The notes below the pieces were generated by a model. The model worked only from the letters and a program-made list of their open reading frames with translations, ran no database searches and was not told the origin of the DNA. The position numbers and the translations under genes are program-made. 64,000 nt of DNA from Escherichia phage W22, in the sequence record PV159336. The stretch is one strand, 5' to 3'. Positions 7,166-17,931 of this stretch are shown here, one piece after another. Numbering within the stretch: position 1 is the stretch's first letter; each line of letters opens with the position of its first letter.

Positions 7166-8176
7166 ATGGCAGAAGAAAGAAATTACACAAAAGCTCCTGC
7201 ACCAAATCTAAACAGAGCATACAAACTGTTAATAGGTACAGCTACTAATACTAAAGAAAAAAGGACAAAAAATTCCTCTTTCAAATCTACAGTAGACTTA
7301 GATACTAAACTAGGGGATGCTAAAAAATCAACCCCTAATTTGTATGTTATTACGGAGCACCAAATATCTTTCACAATAAGAAAAGATAATAATAAAGATC
7401 CTAATCAAGCCGAGATAACTATTTATAACCTAAGTGATGATACTGTTAATTATATTAACAAAGGTATTCGTAACAACTTGGCTGTTGCTTTGGCAGTAGG
7501 TTATGAAGGTCAAGAGTTAATTATGATCTTTAAGGGAACGGTGCAGTGGGTGAGTGATACCTTTAACAATACAGACAGACGTACAGTGTTACATTGTCTG
7601 GATGGTGGTATTAACATCTCCGAAGCAAGGACAAGCAGAAGTTATCCGAAAGGTACAAAAGTAAGTAAGGTTGTTAAAGATTTAGTTAAAGATTTAGGTA
7701 CTACAGAAGGTAATATTCACGTAGATACAGAGAAAACTTTATCATCTGCAACAGCTATGTGTGGGAACACATCACATTACTTAGAAAGTATCTGTAAAGG
7801 TATTGATCATAATGTGTCAATACAAGACGGATCTGTTTACGTGACACCAAGATCACAAATGTCTAGTGCAAGATGTGCATATATTAGCGCAGAAACAGGT
7901 TTAATTGGTAGTCCAGAACCTTTCCACAATGATATTAAACCGACACAAAAAGTAACCAAATCTTCTAAGAAAGCTAAAAAGCCTACAGATGGTGTTAAGT
8001 TCAGATGTGAGATGAACGGTGCTATTTTACCAGAAAAAACTGTTTGGCTCAAGAGCCATAACTACGATGGTGGTTTTAAGGTGGTGTCTGTTGTTCATAC
8101 AGGCGATAGGGAAGGTAAAGACTGGACAACTGAAGTAGAGTCTGTATCTGTATCTGCAATTATTAAGAAGGGCTAG
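7166..8176 (+). CDS. putative baseplate hub/tail protein
   Basis: 336 aa, position between tape measure and spike gene; assignment by synteny only. Confidence 0.3.
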   Translation: MAEERNYTKAPAPNLNRAYKLLIGTATNTKEKRTKNSSFKSTVDLDTKLGDAKKSTPNLYVITEHQISFTIRKDNNKDPNQAEITIYNLSDDTVNYINKGIRNNLAVALAVGYEGQELIMIFKGTVQWVSDTFNNTDRRTVLHCLDGGINISEARTSRSYPKGTKVSKVVKDLVKDLGTTEGNIHVDTEKTLSSATAMCGNTSHYLESICKGIDHNVSIQDGSVYVTPRSQMSSARCAYISAETGLIGSPEPFHNDIKPTQKVTKSSKKAKKPTDGVKFRCEMNGAILPEKTVWLKSHNYDGGFKVVSVVHTGDREGKDWTTEVESVSVSAIIKKG

Positions 8177-8178
8177 AA

Positions 8179-8916
8179 ATGGATGCTTTAAATTTTGTAA
8201 CAGCAATCCGTGGATTAATCAACGAGCAAGTTGCGGAAGTACATACATCTTTACCTGTAAGGGTAATTGGTGTAGATTATGGATCTAAGACAGTAACTTT
8301 AGAATCTATCGTAAAGAATACCAGATCTACTGAAGATGAAATAGATTACCCAACATTCCACGATGTTCCTTTTATGGTAAATGGTGGTGGTACAGGTAGA
8401 ATTTCATTTCCAATTAAAGCAGGAGATATTGGTGTTGTTGTCTTTTCAGAAAGAGATCCGTCGAATGCTTTCCAGACAGACGGAGATACAGCCAGTAGCG
8501 GAACATTAATTCAACCTTGTGGTTTGTATCCAGCCTGTTTTATTCCTAAGATAGCAACAGCTACGGATTCTTCTGAAGAAGTAGATTCTGAAAAAGTTGT
8601 TATCTCAAATAATAAGCAAACTTACGCTTCGTTTGATCCTAACGGTAATATATCTGTGTACAACACACAAGGTATGAAAATAGATATGACACCAGACAGT
8701 ATCGTTCTTACTGATGCAGGAGGAGGAAAACTTACACTGCAAGGTGGGACTATGACATATAAAGGTGGTACTGTAAATTTAAACGGTTTAACAATCACAC
8801 CTGACGGTCGTATGAAAGATAGTGGTGGCATTGGTTTACACACACATACACACCCTGTACGCGGTGTTGAAACTGGTGGTAGCACTGTTACTTCCGACAA
8901 ACCAAATGGAGGTTAA
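8179..8916 (+). CDS. baseplate central spike protein (gpV/gp5-like)
   Basis: 245 aa; N-terminal region resembles gpV-type spikes, Gly-rich beta-rich C-terminus ending in His-rich tip (HTHTHP). Confidence 0.5.
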   Translation: MDALNFVTAIRGLINEQVAEVHTSLPVRVIGVDYGSKTVTLESIVKNTRSTEDEIDYPTFHDVPFMVNGGGTGRISFPIKAGDIGVVVFSERDPSNAFQTDGDTASSGTLIQPCGLYPACFIPKIATATDSSEEVDSEKVVISNNKQTYASFDPNGNISVYNTQGMKIDMTPDSIVLTDAGGGKLTLQGGTMTYKGGTVNLNGLTITPDGRMKDSGGIGLHTHTHPVRGVETGGSTVTSDKPNGG

Positions 8917-8919
8917 CAG

Positions 8920-9555
8920 ATGGGAATACCATTTGATTTAAAACTTGATGGTTCTAACGATTTAGTAATGGTGGATGGTGATTTAACACTAACCACAACT
9001 AAAAGTGAAATTGCAGCACAGACGCTTGGAATAACACTTAGAACTTTCCGTGGAGAATGGTTCCTCAATTCTAATTTTGGGGTTCCATATCTGCAAGAGA
9101 TTATTGGTGTTGCCAAGAAGAAAGAGATTGTTGATCGCATTTTCTTATCAACTATCGCAAGTAATGTTTATATAGATAATATTAATTCCTACACATCCTC
9201 TTATGATAGAGATGATAGGTATTACTCAATGAACGTTACTGTTACAGTTGGTGAACAAGTTGTTAGTGCGCTGTTCAGTACACAGCCGTCTGAAGAATAT
9301 ATCTATCCAGAAGCTGGTGATGATAATGCAGCAATCACTTGTGAAGCATTTGAAATTGTTGAATCTGCAAATAGACTCTATCGCTTTATTAACATTGTTG
9401 GTCTTCCTAGAAATACTTATTCTACTTGGTGGAATGAGTGGTCTAACGAGGCATTGATTGAAAAATACCTTGTTAACGAAGCCAATAAAGGTCTTGCAAC
9501 CAATTACAACTATGCTATAACAGCAACAATGGGAGCTACAAACAATAATGGCTGA
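8920..9555 (+). CDS. baseplate protein, GPW/gp25-like
   Basis: Motif TLRTFRGEWFLNSNFGVPY resembles GPW/gp25 family core (GER...P.FG); follows spike gene. Confidence 0.45.
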   Translation: MGIPFDLKLDGSNDLVMVDGDLTLTTTKSEIAAQTLGITLRTFRGEWFLNSNFGVPYLQEIIGVAKKKEIVDRIFLSTIASNVYIDNINSYTSSYDRDDRYYSMNVTVTVGEQVVSALFSTQPSEEYIYPEAGDDNAAITCEAFEIVESANRLYRFINIVGLPRNTYSTWWNEWSNEALIEKYLVNEANKGLATNYNYAITATMGATNNNG

Positions 9556-10021
9556 TTTAACTACAATCAAGGTGTCTGATCTACCTGTAACAACATCTGT
9601 TTCAGACACAGATTATTTTGTAACAGATCAATCGGGCATCACTAAGAAAACATCATTACGTGTTCTTCTTGCGGGTGCTGGTGTTACACGAAATCGTCTT
9701 TCTGCAAGGGGTACTGTTACAAACACCCTAGCTTTAGATATTAGTACGGCAGAGTATTTCTCTGCCACTTTATCTAGTCCAACTTGCAGTATTTCATTTA
9801 GTAATGTTCCAGTTACAACTAACATTGTTCAAAACTTTACTCTATCCCTACGTCAAGGAAGTGGAGCAAATAAAGTAACGTGGCCTCAATCTGTTAAATG
9901 GAGTTTTGGTCGCGCTCCTGTTTTGAGTTATAAACAGGGAGCTACAGATATTTTTGAATTTGTTAGTTATGATAATGGAGCTACCTGGATAGGTAGTTTA
10001 GTGATGGCAGGAGTGATTTAA
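9548..10021 (+). CDS. tail fiber-related protein with conserved N-terminal anchor motif
   Basis: N-terminus (TTIKVSDLPVTTSVSDTDYFVTDQSGITKKTS) parallels N-terminus of the EEP fiber at 15074. Confidence 0.4.
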   Translation: MADLTTIKVSDLPVTTSVSDTDYFVTDQSGITKKTSLRVLLAGAGVTRNRLSARGTVTNTLALDISTAEYFSATLSSPTCSISFSNVPVTTNIVQNFTLSLRQGSGANKVTWPQSVKWSFGRAPVLSYKQGATDIFEFVSYDNGATWIGSLVMAGVI

Positions 10022-12897
10022 TGTCAAGAATTAAGCACAGAATTGACAATGTTTTTCAACTGATCGATGGACATATTCAGTTCTTAGATCGTAATACAGG
10101 TTTAACTGTAGATCCTACAGTGCAACACTATGTATTAAACCCACAAAACGTTCTAGCTAATAACAGACACTTTATAAACTGGACTGCTCAAGAAGGGCAA
10201 CCAAACGGGGATGCTACAACAGAAGGTCAATCCGTGCTTATTCTTGGTTGCGCTTATGCATACCTAGCTTCCGGCGATACAAAGTATTTAGACTCTGCTA
10301 AAAAATATTGGCAAGCCTATATAGATTACTTCTTTGGTGGTCAGCCTATTCCAGATCCGCCAGCAAAATATCGCCCTAACTGGATTATTAACGGTAAAGA
10401 ACCACGTCTTGCGCACTATCCTCTTACAGATGATGGCTACCCTACACACGGAGGTTTTAAGGGTAGCTTAATGACGTGGACTAACGGTAGAACAGTTATT
10501 CCTCATGGTGCTCCACATTGGGGAGAATACCTTGACAAAGCATGGTTTGCTTTTAATGGTAATCTAGGATGGAACTCTGTAAACGCTACAGTATATGCTG
10601 TTAATGCAGATGGAACAACAGATTGGTCTAAGAATGGAGATCAATGGGATGTTGATTGGATCATTGATCGTCTAGGACGTAAAGTTGATTGGGATGGAAA
10701 TATCTTAGAAGAAGGTTTTCCAACATCTCAATACGGAACAGTTCAACTAAAAAATACTTCTGTAAACGGTACATATAAATTTAACTACGCGACTTGTAAC
10801 CCTGTTGAACACGGTGGTTATTTAATGGAGCGTAACACTATGTGGCATAACAGACCAGTTAACGTTCCGGTAGAAATGGGCTTTCAGGATAATGCGTCAG
10901 ATGCCGAAACTTGGTGGTGTGATGCTAATTACCTGATGTACCAAATTACAGGAGAAAGAAAATATTGGCTATGCTGGCAGTCTTCACTGTTAGTGTGTCA
11001 AGATTACTCAAACATTGATATGTTTGATAAATTCTTCCGTAAATCTACATATGCAACTATTCCGTTTACAGATGGCATCTCTTACGATTATTCGTATCCA
11101 TCTACAGCAATACCTAAATATTCAAGAGATACTTTAGGTTATATTGTTATTAGACAAGATGTTGCTGCTCAAACAACATTAGAACAGCAAGCCATTTGGT
11201 TTAAAGTGGATCAGAACTCTAAGTTACGAGTTCAGTTTCAAGGTGTAGATGACGCAGGACATGGTATTCTTTTCCGTCCAGAGTTGGAACTAAGTAAGAC
11301 CAAAGATGAAAATAACACAGTAACTTACCGTTGTGGCTTACCACTGGGTACAGCTAGTATGACAAGCATGGATATTCCATTATCCAGCTTTATGAGAAGC
11401 ACCCCTCCGAATGGTGGAACATATATTATCGCAGATCCGCGAATTATTGTTGACTGGGGTGGCAATACTGTGGTACAATTTAAGTATGTAACAGGTATTG
11501 CTGGAACTAATAATGACCAGATTGTTACTGCATCAATGGATACGGATGGTGGTATTACTGTTGGTTTTTGGTTAACTCCTACATCAAAAGCTAATGTTAA
11601 GTCTATTACATATAGAACATATGAAGATGACTTTAACATGACTATCACGGATGCTCAAGGTTGGAGATGGTGGGCTATGCTTCCTAAAACGCAAGGGGCA
11701 TGGAGTACGAAGACTTTATCAGCTTCTGATTTTAAGTTAAGTGCTTACCAGCCTAATCATCCAGAAACAGATCCTAAACCTTCAGCAATAAATCTTACTG
11801 CGGTAGACCAGGTAAATTTAGTTCTCGATACGGCTCCTGTCAATGGTTTAACAGGAACAATAGATTTCTATTGTATTAACGATGTACCTGAAAGATATTC
11901 GTCATCTTCTGGTGATGATTATACCATGTACTTCCGTATCACTGTACAGGCTTCAAGTCCTCATACTGCTAAATTAGGTGATTGTACTATTATTGACTAT
12001 AAGTTAAATAGTCTTAATTACACACCAGGAATAATTCCATTCTCTAATATCAGTGACCCAAACACTGCATTGTATGATGGCTGGCGTGGTATTCCATACC
12101 CAGGATACCAATACCCTTCCTTATACTGTTTTGCAGGTAGAGATATTGATTGGACGCGTTTAAATAACAGTATCAATTTCTTGTATGATGCTCAAATGTG
12201 GTTTTATAACACGTTTGATCCTGTGATGCCTGGGCCTATGGCACAAGCATATGTGTGGGATCGTTGGGATGCAAGAAAATACGGTGAACCTAATACGTTT
12301 ACAATGAAACACTGGAATGAAAAAGCGTGGGATGGTTATGAAGCTCGTGCATTCTACTGTGCTTGTCATGCTGTATACGAACTTGTACAAAGAGGAGAAA
12401 CACCTCCTGAAAAACTAGTAACTGTTTGTAAAAATTGGATCAACTACCTTAAATGGTTCCAAGACAATAATGATGGAAGAACACCAACTATCTTTAACCC
12501 AGATGGTACAGTTCTTGCACCTATAGATGACTTTACTAGTCATATGTCTGCACTGTTTATGGCGGGTTGTTCAATCATGGGCTTGGCAGGTTATGATTCA
12601 CAAATTCCAAACATTGGTATTGTAGCAGACAGATGTTTTGATCTGATTCAGCAAAACTATATTGTGCTTTCCCCTAACCATCCGATGAATGGTTCCTGGA
12701 GTGTTGCACCACGCCCAGATTCAGATAACGGAATGTTCTTTGGTTTCCATGCTGGAGAACTATTACGTGGTTTTGGTTTATATGCCTTGTATCGTAAACT
12801 AAACCCTCAAAACGCTTTACCAATTTTGGATAATAGTAACATACCAACACTAACTGTTCTAACTATGAATGATATTAGTGTTGATGTAACCAAATAA
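10021..12897 (+). CDS. large tail fiber/baseplate-associated protein (possible carbohydrate-active domain)
   Basis: 958 aa, Trp/Tyr-rich; N-terminal segment (GCAYAYLASGDTKYLDSAKKYW) loosely resembles (alpha/alpha)6-barrel glycosidase/lyase motifs. Confidence 0.4.
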   Translation: MSRIKHRIDNVFQLIDGHIQFLDRNTGLTVDPTVQHYVLNPQNVLANNRHFINWTAQEGQPNGDATTEGQSVLILGCAYAYLASGDTKYLDSAKKYWQAYIDYFFGGQPIPDPPAKYRPNWIINGKEPRLAHYPLTDDGYPTHGGFKGSLMTWTNGRTVIPHGAPHWGEYLDKAWFAFNGNLGWNSVNATVYAVNADGTTDWSKNGDQWDVDWIIDRLGRKVDWDGNILEEGFPTSQYGTVQLKNTSVNGTYKFNYATCNPVEHGGYLMERNTMWHNRPVNVPVEMGFQDNASDAETWWCDANYLMYQITGERKYWLCWQSSLLVCQDYSNIDMFDKFFRKSTYATIPFTDGISYDYSYPSTAIPKYSRDTLGYIVIRQDVAAQTTLEQQAIWFKVDQNSKLRVQFQGVDDAGHGILFRPELELSKTKDENNTVTYRCGLPLGTASMTSMDIPLSSFMRSTPPNGGTYIIADPRIIVDWGGNTVVQFKYVTGIAGTNNDQIVTASMDTDGGITVGFWLTPTSKANVKSITYRTYEDDFNMTITDAQGWRWWAMLPKTQGAWSTKTLSASDFKLSAYQPNHPETDPKPSAINLTAVDQVNLVLDTAPVNGLTGTIDFYCINDVPERYSSSSGDDYTMYFRITVQASSPHTAKLGDCTIIDYKLNSLNYTPGIIPFSNISDPNTALYDGWRGIPYPGYQYPSLYCFAGRDIDWTRLNNSINFLYDAQMWFYNTFDPVMPGPMAQAYVWDRWDARKYGEPNTFTMKHWNEKAWDGYEARAFYCACHAVYELVQRGETPPEKLVTVCKNWINYLKWFQDNNDGRTPTIFNPDGTVLAPIDDFTSHMSALFMAGCSIMGLAGYDSQIPNIGIVADRCFDLIQQNYIVLSPNHPMNGSWSVAPRPDSDNGMFFGFHAGELLRGFGLYALYRKLNPQNALPILDNSNIPTLTVLTMNDISVDVTK

Positions 12898-12905
12898 GGA
12901 AAATA

Positions 12906-15065
12906 ATGAAACAGGCTATTTTTACTGTAACTCGAAATACGAGAGTAAATGCCAGTTCATTCAGCTATAAGACCGTCGATGGAACGGCGGTCGCTGGTAG
13001 AGATTATGTAGCTAAACAGGGAACAGTAACGTTCCCTTCTGATGCAGATTCTGCTACTGTAGTGGTTGATGTATATGAACGTCCGGCAAACTCTTTAGAT
13101 CTTTATTTTACTCTTGAGATTACTAGCATAAGTCAAAATAACATGATGATCAACGAAGAAATTCGTTGTGTTATTACGACTGATCAATCGAATACAACCC
13201 CGCTAACTTGGCCTGTTGTGAAGTCTAGAATGTTTGATCCTAAGTTTTGGACAATAGATTCTCAAGCAACAGAAAGTTGTTCTATTATCTCTAATGGTGA
13301 TTCTTTCACAGCAAGAATGGTTAATAGGACAGTGGCTGGTCTTGCTGGGATTATTTGGTCAACTTACGATAAATATGATCACAAAGGATTAGGCTACCAA
13401 GAACATTCTGACTTAAGTAAAGAGAAACTTTGGTTTAAAATGGAACTTAGTCAAGGTGTTCCTGGATTAAAAGAAGAAAAATTAATACCATCCTTAACAG
13501 TGACACTGAAGGATGAAACAGTTCATTATGTATCTCTAAACTTTTATGCAGAAGAAGTTTCAGAGGATGGTAAAACAGCAACAATCAAACTAGATTTCTC
13601 AAATTTAAAATCTGGGCCAGAAAATGATATTGTTGTTGACACTACACAGATAGATAATATGTTCTTCTCCTTGATCTCAACGAGGTATCAAGAAATTGAA
13701 GATATTATTCCTGTAGACAATGAGGATCTTTCCTTTAAGTTTACCATACTGGAGCCTGATACTGGTTACAGTATGATGAATATGGGTAATTTAAATGTTC
13801 CAGCACACACCATAAGAATGTGTACATCTTATGATGATATGTATAACCTGACCCCAGAGCGAGTTATTTCTAACACCTACAGATTAGGTTATAGGGATAT
13901 GATTAACCACTATAATGGTATGTCACACTATTATCAGTTTAGTTGGGATGCTGGTTCTAATAAATGGGCTTTGAATAGAACAGAATATTTAAACCCAGCA
14001 ACAGAAGCATGGTTTGATAATTTCCACGCTAATGCAAAAGCTATGGGCTACACAGTAATGAATTCCTTAAGTTTTGAACTTATGAGTACAGTGTGTCCTG
14101 TAGAATGGGTACAACATACTTGGAATGATAATCTTGCTGCTACAGGTTATGAGCCACCAAGTTATGTTTTATCTCCTTCAATTGATGAAGGGATGAATTA
14201 TTTACAAGGTGTAATAAATAAGATAGCTTCTATATCCGCTGCTAATGATCTTCCGGTTATTATTCAGGTTGGTGAACCGTGGTGGTGGTATAACACAGCT
14301 ACCAATCTACCGTGTATTTATGATTATACAACCAAAGTTGCATTTAATAATGAAACTGGATTGTATGCACAAGATGTTGGTACAGTTAAAAATTATAAAA
14401 CTGGTACACCATATGATGAATATTATGCATTCCTATCTAAAACATTAGGACTGCGTGTTGCTAAATTTGCAACAGATACCAGATTAGCATATCCTGGAGC
14501 TAAAGTTACATTGTTACCATTTGTGCCATCCATTTTGGGTAACGGTATGATGGAATTTGTTAACTTCCCTAAAGATTATTATATCCCAGAAAACTTTGAC
14601 TTTTATTGTTCAGAATGTTATGATTGGTTGTTGGAAGGTAAGATGGAAAGATCTTTCGACGCTATCACAATACCTAATGAGCAACTAGGTTTTAGTTATG
14701 ATAAGATACATTATCTTGCAGGGTTTGTTCCAGATGCAACTCTAGCACCATTATATGGCTTTGATCCTGAATCAGACTACAGAACATATTTGTGGAAAAT
14801 GATTATAGGTAATATTGTATTGAATGACCAGAAGTTTGTTGGTTTATATCAATACATATGGGCTTATCCACAAATAATGCATGATTCAATAACTGTTCTT
14901 AATTCAAAATCCCAAGTTTTTTATATGGGTAATGTGCCTTTGAATTGCTATTTGCAAGATATCACTCTTAAACAGGTAAATGTTACGATTGCTACTATAA
15001 GCGGAATTACATTAGCCACTAAATCTGGAGAAGATTTAGTAACAACACAAAAATTTTATATATAG
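12906..15065 (+). CDS. large tail-associated protein with N-terminal Calx-beta-like domain
   Basis: 719 aa; N-terminal VDGTAVAGRDYVAKQGTVTFPSDADSATVVVDV...LYFTLEI fits Calx-beta pattern (G.A..G.DY...G.l.F). Confidence 0.4.
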   Translation: MKQAIFTVTRNTRVNASSFSYKTVDGTAVAGRDYVAKQGTVTFPSDADSATVVVDVYERPANSLDLYFTLEITSISQNNMMINEEIRCVITTDQSNTTPLTWPVVKSRMFDPKFWTIDSQATESCSIISNGDSFTARMVNRTVAGLAGIIWSTYDKYDHKGLGYQEHSDLSKEKLWFKMELSQGVPGLKEEKLIPSLTVTLKDETVHYVSLNFYAEEVSEDGKTATIKLDFSNLKSGPENDIVVDTTQIDNMFFSLISTRYQEIEDIIPVDNEDLSFKFTILEPDTGYSMMNMGNLNVPAHTIRMCTSYDDMYNLTPERVISNTYRLGYRDMINHYNGMSHYYQFSWDAGSNKWALNRTEYLNPATEAWFDNFHANAKAMGYTVMNSLSFELMSTVCPVEWVQHTWNDNLAATGYEPPSYVLSPSIDEGMNYLQGVINKIASISAANDLPVIIQVGEPWWWYNTATNLPCIYDYTTKVAFNNETGLYAQDVGTVKNYKTGTPYDEYYAFLSKTLGLRVAKFATDTRLAYPGAKVTLLPFVPSILGNGMMEFVNFPKDYYIPENFDFYCSECYDWLLEGKMERSFDAITIPNEQLGFSYDKIHYLAGFVPDATLAPLYGFDPESDYRTYLWKMIIGNIVLNDQKFVGLYQYIWAYPQIMHDSITVLNSKSQVFYMGNVPLNCYLQDITLKQVNVTIATISGITLATKSGEDLVTTQKFYI

Positions 15066-15073
15066 GAGTAAAA

Positions 15074-15988
15074 ATGTCAACTACAATTACTAATTTACCC
15101 GAAACATCAAAAGTTAATGGTTCAGATTACCTGGTTTTAGATCAATCTGATAAAACTGTTAAAAGCACAGTTTCCAACTTTCTTACTGACACTGGGGTGG
15201 TTAAAGATTACACTCGTCCTAATATCCGTCAGTTGATCCGCGACCGTGAGGAAGCATTGATCGGAAACAAGGTTCGCTTTGTAACATGGAACACTCAAGG
15301 ATATAACAGTGTGTACAAGTATTATGGAAAAGACTTCGCTAACCAACAACGTGTAACAGACTTGACAGAGTGGTTCCTTCGCATAGGGGCTGATTTTGTG
15401 GGATCACAAGAAGTCTGGTCTGTGCCAGATCAACCGGATAGATTCTTCGCACAATATCCGTATATTTCTGCTTTCCAGTCTATCTCTCTTTGGGAATCAT
15501 CGCTAGGACGCCGCTACGGAAACCTGGCAGTAGCTACACGCGCTTTGAACAACAGTACGTTTAAGATTTATGACTCTCAGCCTATCCCTGGTGACACCGA
15601 TAAGGAACTCCGTTCATATATCCGAACGGAAATGACGGTAGCAGGAACGACCATCGCAATCTACGTCACACACTTGTCTCTTAATCAGACACGCATAAAT
15701 GAAGAGATTGCCGAGTTGGGGCTGGCAATGCAGAACGACACAGCGACGCACATCGTTGTCATGGGGGACTGGAACACTAACACTGATACTGACTTCGCGC
15801 CGTTCACCGATCATGGATTCACTATGGTGAACAGGTTCGGTGAATTTAACACCAACAACGTTGGCAATACCTGGTATCTCGACCGAATTTTCTACAAAGG
15901 TTTCTCGGCTGAAGATGATCGCGGGGTCTTTGATACTCCTGTGTCACTTGGCGACCACAAGGCTCTCTATGTAGATCTGGTAATTTAA
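15074..15988 (+). CDS. tail fiber protein with endonuclease/exonuclease/phosphatase (EEP) domain
   Basis: Tail-fiber N-terminal anchor motif, then EEP-type motifs RFVTWNTQG, VVMGDWNT and C-terminal GDHKALYVDL. Confidence 0.6.
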   Translation: MSTTITNLPETSKVNGSDYLVLDQSDKTVKSTVSNFLTDTGVVKDYTRPNIRQLIRDREEALIGNKVRFVTWNTQGYNSVYKYYGKDFANQQRVTDLTEWFLRIGADFVGSQEVWSVPDQPDRFFAQYPYISAFQSISLWESSLGRRYGNLAVATRALNNSTFKIYDSQPIPGDTDKELRSYIRTEMTVAGTTIAIYVTHLSLNQTRINEEIAELGLAMQNDTATHIVVMGDWNTNTDTDFAPFTDHGFTMVNRFGEFNTNNVGNTWYLDRIFYKGFSAEDDRGVFDTPVSLGDHKALYVDLVI

Positions 15989-16000
15989 GGGGAAAGGAAA

Positions 16001-17308
16001 ATGAATTTACATACAATTGACGCAAACATACTTGACATGCAGGGGCTGCCTTTGGATCTCCGCATCAACAAGATGCTGTCAGACATCAACCGCCTGTATC
16101 AACGAGGGCAGGTTATACTGCTTACTAAGTTTGCTGATTTAGGTCTTGCTGACACCGAAGCTACAATGGCAAATGTGTTCGCTCGTATGCCTAATAACAC
16201 CATCTTTATGACTGAAGTTTACCGTGGTGTTCACACCAATTTCGACATGCCGACACTAATCAACGGTGCGAGATTATCTGGACGGTTGATTGTCTATGGT
16301 TCGTCCGAGTCAAGTAACAAATTGACTGCATACTTTCAGCAAGAAACAGGTTTGTGGACACGCCACCTGAACAAAGGTGCTGCCACAAATTATACCGATA
16401 CGGGATGGCATAAGATTGAAGTTCATGGTTTGCAAGAGGATCTAACCACAAGCTCTGTGACTAATCTTGAAAACAAGCTGTCAAACCTAAAAACGCCAGG
16501 CATCTATTACATAGCTGGTAGCATAATGTCACAATTCACAGACGTGCCCACAACAGGTTCAGGAGCATCACTGTGTGAAGTGACCTATATTCACCATCTG
16601 GCTGACACAATACAGACTTTGCGTACCAACGGGGTTGCTCAGACCGGGTGGCGTAGACAAATTTCTAACAATGGAACTGTTGGGGAATGGAAACAGGAGT
16701 TTGTTAGTGGCTCTCCTATGAATAGTTCGTCTACTATAAGTTTCGCCGGGGGAACTGTTTCTGGGACATTAACTACAAGGACGCTCCAACCTGAAAAAAC
16801 AGCAACCCACAACATCGGTTATGCTTCTGCTGCATACAATCAAGCGTATTTTCAGAATGCGCCCACAGTTGTTTCTGATGTGAATTATAAACTATTCATA
16901 GACGATATTCCTGACGATGTTTTGGATGCGTGGAGCACGGTTAACTACTATCAGTGGAAAATGAAAACTGCTGTTGCGGAGAAAGGTGAGGAAAAAGCGC
17001 GCCTTCATGTAGGTGTCCTTGCACAAGAAATCAAAGAGAAGTTTGAAGCTGCTGGTTTGGATGCAACCAAGTATGGCATTCTTATCTATGATTGTTGGGA
17101 AGCTGTTGAGGCTGTTGAATATAAACCTGCTGTATACGATCCAGATACTAACGAATTAATCTCTGAAGAAGTTCAGGCTGTTGAAGGACGTGAAGCAGGT
17201 GAGATCTGGATGGTGCGAATGGAAGAGTGTCTTGCTTTAGAAGCGGCACTGATGCGCCGGACTACAAAACGACTGGAAGATCGCATGGCTGCTCTGGAAG
17301 GCAAGTAA
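16001..17308 (+). CDS. tail fiber protein with C-terminal intramolecular chaperone (S74-like) domain
   Basis: 435 aa; C-terminal ARLHVGVLAQEIKEKFEAAGLD...YGIL segment resembles autoproteolytic chaperone domain of endosialidase-type fibers. Confidence 0.5.
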   Translation: MNLHTIDANILDMQGLPLDLRINKMLSDINRLYQRGQVILLTKFADLGLADTEATMANVFARMPNNTIFMTEVYRGVHTNFDMPTLINGARLSGRLIVYGSSESSNKLTAYFQQETGLWTRHLNKGAATNYTDTGWHKIEVHGLQEDLTTSSVTNLENKLSNLKTPGIYYIAGSIMSQFTDVPTTGSGASLCEVTYIHHLADTIQTLRTNGVAQTGWRRQISNNGTVGEWKQEFVSGSPMNSSSTISFAGGTVSGTLTTRTLQPEKTATHNIGYASAAYNQAYFQNAPTVVSDVNYKLFIDDIPDDVLDAWSTVNYYQWKMKTAVAEKGEEKARLHVGVLAQEIKEKFEAAGLDATKYGILIYDCWEAVEAVEYKPAVYDPDTNELISEEVQAVEGREAGEIWMVRMEECLALEAALMRRTTKRLEDRMAALEGK

Positions 17309-17311
17309 ATA

Positions 17312-17331
17312 AAGCCCCGCTTCGGCGGGGA
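17312..17331 (+). terminator. terminator-like hairpin after fiber gene
   Basis: CCCCGC-TTCG-GCGGGG perfect hairpin; weak T-tract on + strand. Confidence 0.4.
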
Positions 17332-17403
17332 ATTATAAAGGTACTATCATGGTCTTCATTACGATTCACACAAACTATGTCCTGCAAGCGCATGTCATCG
17401 CCA

Positions 17404-17414
17404 TGTGATAAAAT
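17404..17414 (+). promoter_or_regulatory. extended -10 promoter-like element (TGTGATAAAAT)
   Basis: TG-n-TAAAAT identical to the element at 5950-5960; lies in 230-bp intergenic region before baseplate J operon. Confidence 0.3.
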
Positions 17415-17539
17415 GATGAAAACATATCGTAGCAGGGTTAATCTTGTCTTTAGTTACTATCGTACTAACTCAAAATGTTGTCACTACCACTGCAAACCCC
17501 TCCAAAGAGGGGCTTACTTAGAAAAACAAAGAGGTTGTT

Positions 17540-17689
17540 ATGAACGAAATGTTCTCCCAAGGCGGTATTGCCCCAGGTACTACTGCCATTAGTCTTAGTG
17601 CTGCTGTACTTGTGCATTCAGCGGGTTCTGTAGACCTTGGGGAATTAGCTGTATATCGTGATTTAAAAAGTAATGAGAACGCACTATGA
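17540..17689 (+). CDS. small hypothetical protein (49 aa), not in ORF track
   Basis: ATG at 17540 preceded by AAAGAGG; stop TGA overlaps ATG of next gene (ATGA coupling). Confidence 0.3.
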   Translation: MNEMFSQGGIAPGTTAISLSAAVLVHSAGSVDLGELAVYRDLKSNENAL

Positions 17690-17931
17690 GAAAATTTTTA
17701 ATAGGTATGTTCTGTACATATCCTGATAATAAAGTCAGTTCTACTAAAGTTTGGAATGCTATTGGTATGATTGTTATGTCCAGTATGTTTATTTATTTGG
17801 GAATTGATAAAGAAATTCCTGAATGGATGGGCTGGGCTTTTGTTTTTATGATCACACCATCTAGACTAATGAAGAATTTAATAGATTTACGTTGGGGCAG
17901 ATCACCTGCCCCTGATAAGGAGGATAACTAA
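17686..17931 (+). CDS. small membrane protein
   Basis: 81 aa with hydrophobic segments (IGMIVMSSMFIYLGI, WMGWAFVFMI); coupled to downstream baseplate gene. Confidence 0.4.
   Translation: MRKFLIGMFCTYPDNKVSSTKVWNAIGMIVMSSMFIYLGIDKEIPEWMGWAFVFMITPSRLMKNLIDLRWGRSPAPDKEDN

Follow-up and report, generated by a model that had tools for sequence, protein, structure and literature searches.

A two-gene cassette in the gp143 slot of Escherichia phage W22 pairs a predicted EEP-family phosphoesterase with a putative receptor-binding protein

We analyzed a stretch of 64,000 nucleotides from Escherichia phage W22 (sequence record PV159336), hereafter the window, in which an earlier note, made from the DNA letters, had pointed to a tail fibre gene carrying an endonuclease/exonuclease/phosphatase (EEP) domain. 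The window represents the tail module of a phi92-like myophage (Stephanstirmvirinae), and its gene order is that of phi92 gp137-gp151. The EEP gene (15074..15988, + strand) is an open reading frame (ORF) of 304 codons with an ATG start and an AGGAG ribosome-binding site 8 nt 5' of it (15061..15065, + strand); the site was read directly from the sequence, and the same motif is annotated for phi92 gene 143. By gene order and Pfam matches, the gene occupies the slot that encodes the endosialidase gp143 in phi92, i.e., it lies between a gp142 homolog and homologs of gp144 and gp145, a membrane protein and baseplate J, respectively. It is followed by an ORF of 435 codons (16001..17308, + strand), the product of which is referred to here as the partner.

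The 304-aa protein is composed of three parts. The first, an N-terminal adaptor (aa 1-43, MSTTITNLPETSKVNGSDYLVLDQSDKTVKSTVSNFLTDTGVV; 15074..15202, + strand), is lineage-specific and common to phi92 gp143 (EndoN92) and ~60 relatives. It is followed by a neck helix (aa 44-64, beginning KDYTRPNIRQLIRDREEAL; 15203..15265, + strand), which precedes the EEP fold and was delimited by a conserved motif, by a helix in the structure model and by DNA homology to the contig L004. The remainder, up to and including the stop codon, is the EEP catalytic domain (aa 65-304; 15266..15988, + strand), as identified by Pfam, the structure model, fold matches and alignments. The match to PF03372 (Exo_endo_phos) had an E-value of 4.3e-12 and a score of 46.7 bits against a cut-off of 24.5, and covered profile positions 1-225 of 225. 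The motifs VTWNTQG, GDWNT and GDHKALYVDL were located at aa 70-76, 231-235 and 293-302, respectively. In alignments of nine and 12 sequences, with identities down to 30-33%, the catalytic set N73, E113, H200, D232, N234, D270, D294 and H295 was invariant, and profile comparison with E. coli ExoIII equated E34 (QE) of that enzyme with E113, and D151/N153 (GDxN) with D232/N234. The neck motif N-x-R-Q-x-I-R-x-R-E-x-A-L was kept in the closer family members.

In the structure model, the adaptor was disordered (as a monomer) and was followed by one helix at aa 51-61 and by the four-layer alpha/beta sandwich that characterizes the EEP superfamily. The trimeric parallel beta-helix or beta-propeller body of a classical tailspike was absent from this model. 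Fold neighbours of the domain were TDP2, LINE-1 endonuclease, ExoIII, DNase1L3 and BT3783 (3mpr). At the sequence level, the domain fell into none of the ExoIII/APE, DNase I, TDP2, neutral sphingomyelinase, inositol 5-phosphatase and CCR4/nocturnin families, and a Pfam search of the 304-aa protein returned nothing besides PF03372, a T4gp10-like branching domain included. By every test that could be applied, the protein is a member of both the EEP superfamily and the phi92 gp143-slot family, and it is likely to be catalytically active, as a predicted Mg2+-dependent EEP phosphoesterase. The ORF and the three motifs singled out in the earlier note were confirmed in the sequence, its domain call by Pfam and the fold model, and the tail-fibre anchor that it described corresponds to the 43-aa adaptor. 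The catalytic His and Asp residues, a lack of conservation of which it had named as grounds for rejecting the reading, are among the eight invariant positions, and the EEP subfamily that it had hoped to assign by hidden Markov model (HMM) proved not to be assignable.

Residues 1-43 shared 93-100% protein identity with the slot protein of ~60 relatives, with no similarity past residue 43. The DNA was 97.8-99.1% identical to that of phi92, PD114 and KMB37 up to nt 15202, a sharp recombination junction at the exact end of codon 43, and identity resumed at 17494-17691; the flanks of the slot were 97.8% identical to phi92, and the sequence lying in this gap was absent from all three genomes. In relatives, the same adaptor bears GDPD, pectate-lyase-like and other domains, and the gp143 slot is therefore a true exchangeable enzyme slot. 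EndoN92 and the other occupants share with the W22 protein both the position between the gp142 and gp144 homologs and the underlying logic, i.e., an adaptor joined to an exchangeable polymer-degrading enzyme domain. The W22 protein differs from phi92 gp143 in its catalytic domain, which is an EEP alpha/beta sandwich unrelated to the sialidase beta-propeller and beta-helix stalk of gp143, in its length of only 304 aa, and in that the intramolecular chaperone resides on the separate partner and not on the enzyme. In a cryo-electron microscopy study of phi92 (2026; PMC13450770), gp143 was assigned to the distal end of fibre I, which is L-shaped, on the wedge protein gp145. We consider it very probable that the EEP protein is the virion slot protein of W22 and, by analogy with phi92 through the shared adaptor, it would be carried at the same distal site on fibre I.

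The occupants of the gp143 slot suggest that it has repeatedly recruited enzymes for phosphate-linked glycans. In a related phage or prophage (P0011), an identical adaptor of 43 aa is joined to Tail_spike_N and a GDPD domain (PF03009), which belongs to a phosphodiester-cleaving TIM-barrel family unrelated to EEP. The slot gene of JLBYU50 is annotated as a 'phosphodiester glycosidase family protein'. In KMB37 (L042, 2469..4533), the slot is split in two, with a 283-aa adaptor-bearing protein encoded ahead of a 386-aa 'tail fiber with glycosidase', the C-terminus of which is chaperone-like. This layout, i.e., a short protein with the adaptor and then a second fibre, may recur in the slot.

The EEP domain and the partner together form a two-gene cassette (15203..17330, + strand) that is mobile between many phage families. 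Its DNA was 97% identical to the metagenome contig L020 and, over 15202..17284, 86.5% identical to L004, a ~131-kb contig with rV5-like flanks resembling those of Vequintavirinae. Homology to L004 started at the same junction (15202), and in L004 the EEP domain is preceded by a P22-type head-binding N-terminus. Beside the L004 cassette lies an anaerobic ribonucleotide reductase gene (NRDD; 7588..10503) that is interrupted by an HNH_3 homing-endonuclease gene. All findable loci with a fibre-type EEP gene were collected. These included CR44b, CR8 and Cronobacter phage B1 (Kayfunavirus), CrRp3 (Vectrevirus), Proteus phage PM116 (Acadevirus) and PA28 (Novosibovirus), as well as BEK2 (Drexlerviridae), Salmonella phage Se-J (Kuttervirus, Ackermannviridae), SU10-like contigs (L005, L045), temperate-type contigs (L007, L046), a Citrobacter koseri prophage (L044) and the contigs L004, L010, L020 and L021. 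The cassette is thus found in Stephanstirmvirinae, a Vequintavirinae-like contig, Ackermannviridae, Drexlerviridae, three subfamilies of Autographiviridae, SU10-like podoviruses and temperate phages.

In each of the 19 loci, W22 included, a homolog of the partner's N-terminal domain was encoded directly 3' of the EEP gene. The two genes overlapped, as they did in the podoviruses, or were separated by no more than 16 nt. BLASTP detected the partner in 13 of the first 15 loci, and an HMM built from 12 partners recovered the held-out ORFs of PA28 (E=3.5e-16) and PM116 (E=9e-9), together with those of three later loci (E=6e-76, 3e-47 and 9e-42). Neither search matched any ORF other than the EEP-adjacent one in any locus. 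The identities of the two proteins to their W22 counterparts co-varied (EEP/partner: 97/100, 92/89, 62/63, 57/55, 38/28 and 30/26%), and the EEP domain was situated at the extreme C-terminus of its protein in all cases. Among cluster representatives, roughly 48 reached an E-value of 1e-30 or better. The cassette is rare. It was found in no phi92-like genome among 50,697 phage records and in none of 5,426 complete E. coli genomes, whereas two copies were of metagenomic origin (P0001, 98%, and the contig L020, 97%). A search of IMG/VR returned three loci, two of them CR44b and CR8, and scans of genomes and metagenomes yielded only two close relatives, together with distant generic EEPs that were not used.

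The partner consists of an N-domain that is present in every cassette (aa 1-235; 16001..16705, + strand), with a subdomain at ~aa 150-230 resembling a receptor-binding tip, and of a stem with a C-terminal intramolecular chaperone and the stop codon (16706..17308, + strand). The chaperone, which comprises a Peptidase_S74 domain (aa 292-353) and the helix that follows it, was identified by Pfam (PF13884, E=3.7e-11, profile positions 1-58 of 58), and the C-terminal part of the partner also matched tail fibre and tail spike entries of PHROG. Chaperones of the Peptidase_S74 type are a hallmark of trimeric fibres and spikes. Long partners of 400-450 aa, such as that of W22, combine N-domain, stem and Peptidase_S74, while the short ones of podoviruses and Ackermannviridae (214-280 aa) consist of the N-domain without stem or chaperone. 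Pfam contained no match to the N-domain. A profile of 14 N-domain sequences, however, matched the fibre tip of Staphylococcus phage P68 (E=7e-6), and also the receptor-binding proteins of phi11 and 80alpha, among others (E up to 6e-3). Camelid nanobody and antibody heavy chains scored E=3e-4 to 1 against profile positions ~130-224, the region of the receptor-binding-tip matches, and these hits are probably a compositional or beta-sandwich artefact. An AlphaFold2 model of the partner (pLDDT 54) was too poor and was not used for fold searches.

The partner homolog of CR44b, gp17.01, was detected in virions by mass spectrometry, according to a note in its sequence record. Across myo-, sipho- and podoviruses the N-terminus of the partner is conserved, and it carries no lineage-specific adaptor; the only other element common to these virions is the neck helix with the EEP domain. 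The partner may therefore dock on the EEP protein, a proposal to which we give about an even chance. Branched two-protein complexes are known from K1-5/K1E (adaptor and spike), from the KP32-type anchor-branch system of Klebsiella phages and from the tailspike proteins of Ackermannviridae. In these, too, two fibre genes are adjacent and the adaptor is confined to the first protein; the second presumably docks on it, and as a rule each of the two is a depolymerase in its own right. The W22 cassette differs in that, as judged from sequence, one protein is the enzyme and the other the binding module, and in that Pfam detected no T4gp10-like domain, leaving the neck helix and the EEP domain as the only conserved candidate docking surface. 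The strict linkage of the two genes and the missing adaptor of the partner would also fit an EEP fold that has become a non-catalytic scaffold, which only docks the partner fibre and leaves the latter as sole receptor-binding protein. We regard this as very improbable, given that all eight catalytic and metal-binding residues are invariant among proteins that are 30-38% identical overall, which would be unexpected for a purely structural domain; moreover, catalysis and docking are not mutually exclusive.

Homologous C-terminal EEP domains, with 27-57% identity, are present in a set of uncharacterized fibres, i.e., gp17 of CR44b and CR8, gp10 of CrRp3, the 'tail fibers protein' of BEK2 and BEK3 and the tail protein of Salmonella phage Se-J (PHROG 31166, 34101). 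The partner gene always follows theirs, and they differ in their N-terminal adaptors, which are of the T7 gp17 type, Tail_spike_N (PF18668), P22 head-binding (PF09008) or others. Some homologs are already labelled 'EEP domain-containing' or 'tail fiber' in databases, but our literature search turned up no publication in which EEP domains on phage tails are discussed or tested. The genome announcement of CR8 and CR44b mentions only the partner, with CR44b gp17.01 described as a putative tailspike with a predicted PRD1 P2-like fold (PMC4038870).

The slots that have received an EEP domain are those that hold the capsule depolymerase in phi92, the tailspike in Kuttervirus and, in T7-like phages, gp17. 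In the C. koseri prophage (chromosome CP195889.1; L044, 6001..12854), the genes that come after those of the EEP fibre and the partner lie on the opposite strand: a gtrC-like gene (Glucos_trans_II), a gtrB-like gene (Glycos_transf_2), gtrA and an integrase gene. An Acyl_transf_3 gene adjoins the cassette in two temperate-type contigs (L007, L046), in the same place as the gtr genes of the prophage. These gtr and Acyl_transf_3 neighbours are seroconversion genes. In temperate phages of the P22 and Sf6 type, genes are found in such an arrangement, and the tailspike typically targets the O-antigen that the phage also modifies. Three of the phages with an EEP domain, i.e., CR8, CR44b and CrRp3, infect Citrobacter rodentium, which has an O-antigen similar to that of E. 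coli O152, as determined by in-silico typing and anti-O152 serum (PMC12501221). O152 is one of six among 182 E. coli serogroups with a sugar-P-sugar, i.e., phosphodiester, backbone, and a further 11 serogroups have sugar-P-alditol linkages (reviewed in PMC9912281). GDPD, as another phosphodiesterase family found behind the same adaptor, was counted as part of the same context.

One of the top structural neighbours of the EEP domain, BT3783 of Bacteroides thetaiotaomicron (PDB 3mpr/4c1r), is an EEP-family sugar phosphatase from a yeast-mannan utilization locus and acts on phosphorylated mannan. Its identity to the W22 domain is 14%, and no family-level sequence relationship between the two was detected. 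Furthermore, BT3783 is a periplasmic or cell-surface enzyme of nutrient acquisition rather than a virion protein, and has been assayed as a phosphomonoesterase, by phosphate release. Taken together, the slot, the hosts, the O-antigen-modifying neighbours and BT3783 form circumstantial evidence that leans towards a phosphoester of a surface glycan as the substrate. The same evidence from slot and context fits equally well with a modifying enzyme, which would remove phosphomonoester- or phosphodiester-linked side groups (phosphate, phosphoethanolamine, glycerol- or ribitol-phosphate) from O-antigen, capsule or the lipopolysaccharide (LPS) core and so unmask a receptor while leaving the backbone uncut, much as deacetylating tailspikes do. 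That BT3783 is a sugar phosphatase and not an endo-enzyme speaks for such an activity, as do the 11 additional serogroups with sugar-P-alditol linkages. However, the only identifiable host glycan, that of O152 type, carries its phosphate in the backbone, and no feature of the sequence tells mono- from diesterase activity. We therefore consider a modifying enzyme unlikely, albeit the least unlikely of the alternatives.

A lipid-directed phosphodiesterase resembling sphingomyelinase C or phospholipase C would open or strip the envelope by acting on outer-membrane phospholipid, on the phosphates of lipid A or on the phosphoglyceride anchor of enterobacterial common antigen or group 2 capsules. 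The domain matches such enzymes no better than it matches nucleases, TDP2 or glycan phosphatases. A conserved lipid target would, moreover, leave unexplained both the fast swapping of cassettes in a host-range slot and the pairing with a receptor-binding tip protein beside O-antigen-modifying genes, which makes this explanation slightly less probable again than a modifying enzyme. Nucleases are numerous among EEP members, and the fold neighbours include TDP2, LINE-1 endonuclease, ExoIII and DNase1L3, so a virion nuclease that degrades the extracellular DNA of the biofilm matrix, and thereby gives the phage access to cells, was also considered. Yet extracellular DNA is not host-specific, whereas the cassette is rare and fast-diverging, lies in host-range slots and comes with a receptor-binding partner; at the sequence level, the EEP domain is in no nuclease family. 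We judge a nuclease to be improbable. The charge of the domain was also tried as a discriminator for nucleases, and was uninformative: these EEP domains have isoelectric points of 4.9-5.6, but ExoIII is likewise acidic.

The reading that we prefer, at somewhat better than even odds, is that the EEP protein and its partner constitute a two-protein unit for receptor recognition and receptor destruction at the gp143 position. Through its 43-aa adaptor, the EEP protein would be mounted distally on baseplate fibre I, and the partner, produced from the adjacent co-translated gene, would trimerize with the aid of its self-cleaving chaperone and attach to the EEP protein. The partner might then bind a phosphate-containing surface polysaccharide, either O-antigen or capsule, in which the EEP domain would hydrolyse sugar-phosphate (glycosyl-phosphodiester) linkages and so allow the phage to reach the outer membrane. 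A virion enzyme that cleaves a phosphodiester of a surface polymer during adsorption had also been proposed in the earlier note; this much is favoured by the slot, the hosts, the neighbouring genes and the glycan-phosphate EEP enzyme, on evidence that is circumstantial. Of the particular polymers that it put forward, teichoic acid is inapplicable, as all named hosts are Gram-negative (enterobacteria and one unverified Pseudomonas record), and extracellular DNA gained no specific support. Its picture of a stand-alone fibre missed the paired downstream gene, which changes how the EEP protein would be expected to work.

Several points weigh against a receptor-destroying unit of this kind. Since CR8 and CR44b are closely related, and cassettes pass from one phage to another on a shared host, the link to C. 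rodentium effectively counts as one or two independent observations. The strain on which BEK2 and BEK3 were isolated, K514, we take to be a rough derivative of K-12, and the fibre would therefore be dispensable there. As a rule, EEP folds occur as monomers, and the classical tailspike is a trimeric beta-helix. Finally, the docking of the partner is deduced from shared elements, with a poor model of the partner itself. In its most specific form, our proposal would make this the first EEP-fold polysaccharide depolymerase, i.e., a glycosyl-phosphodiesterase for those rare O-antigens and capsules whose backbone contains phosphate (of O152 type or similar), delivered as a mobile two-protein module in which the enzyme domain serves as the docking hub for the partner and which is pluggable via a short adaptor. 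We advance this tentatively, as somewhat less than an even bet. What is new here is a presumably enzymatic receptor-binding protein in which a catalytic fold without precedent is paired with an obligate binding partner; its function is proposed from context.

A remnant ORF of 49 codons (MNEMFSQGG..., MNEMFSQGGIAPGTTAISLSAAVLVHSAGSVDLGELAVYRDLKSNENAL; 17540..17689, + strand) is located at the slot's 3' edge, behind the partner gene and with the gp144 homolog directly after it. By tblastn, it was 96% identical to a 49-aa 'tail spike' ORF of KMB37 and 100% identical to the C-terminal part of a 102-aa ORF of PD114, and its N-terminus, MNEMFSQGGKGSTGILTNKQA (MNEMFSQGG), also opens the SU10-like EEP fibre P0003. 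The ORF is probably a recombination scar, left from the N-terminus of a former tailspike gene. The metagenomic twin of the cassette (L020) lacks 17331..17662. On the 5' side of the slot, the gp142 homolog (12906..15065, + strand; 719 aa) has an N-terminal Calx-beta domain together with the N-terminal and TIM-barrel domains of the 'non-contractile tail sheath protein' (NCTSP; PF23844, PF23845; E=1e-81). This is an odd annotation in a phage with a contractile tail, and in relatives the protein is labelled either tail fibre or poly-N-acetylglucosamine (PNAG) deacetylase.

Which hosts a phage can infect depends largely on the tail enzymes with which it cuts surface polysaccharides. To our knowledge, those described are glycosidases, lyases and esterases, and it is on these that prediction tools have been trained. 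If the proposed activity is true, EEP-type phosphodiesterases would add an enzyme class that current prediction tools overlook, and would explain how phages handle O-antigens and capsules with phosphate in the chain. They would also provide a specific reagent to type or strip such antigens, e.g., the LPS of O152 type made by C. rodentium, a pathogen used as a mouse model. The strict pairing of enzyme and binder in myo-, sipho- and podoviruses provides a clean example of a plug-in receptor module and, for host-range engineering, a defined junction, which in W22 lies directly after codon 43.
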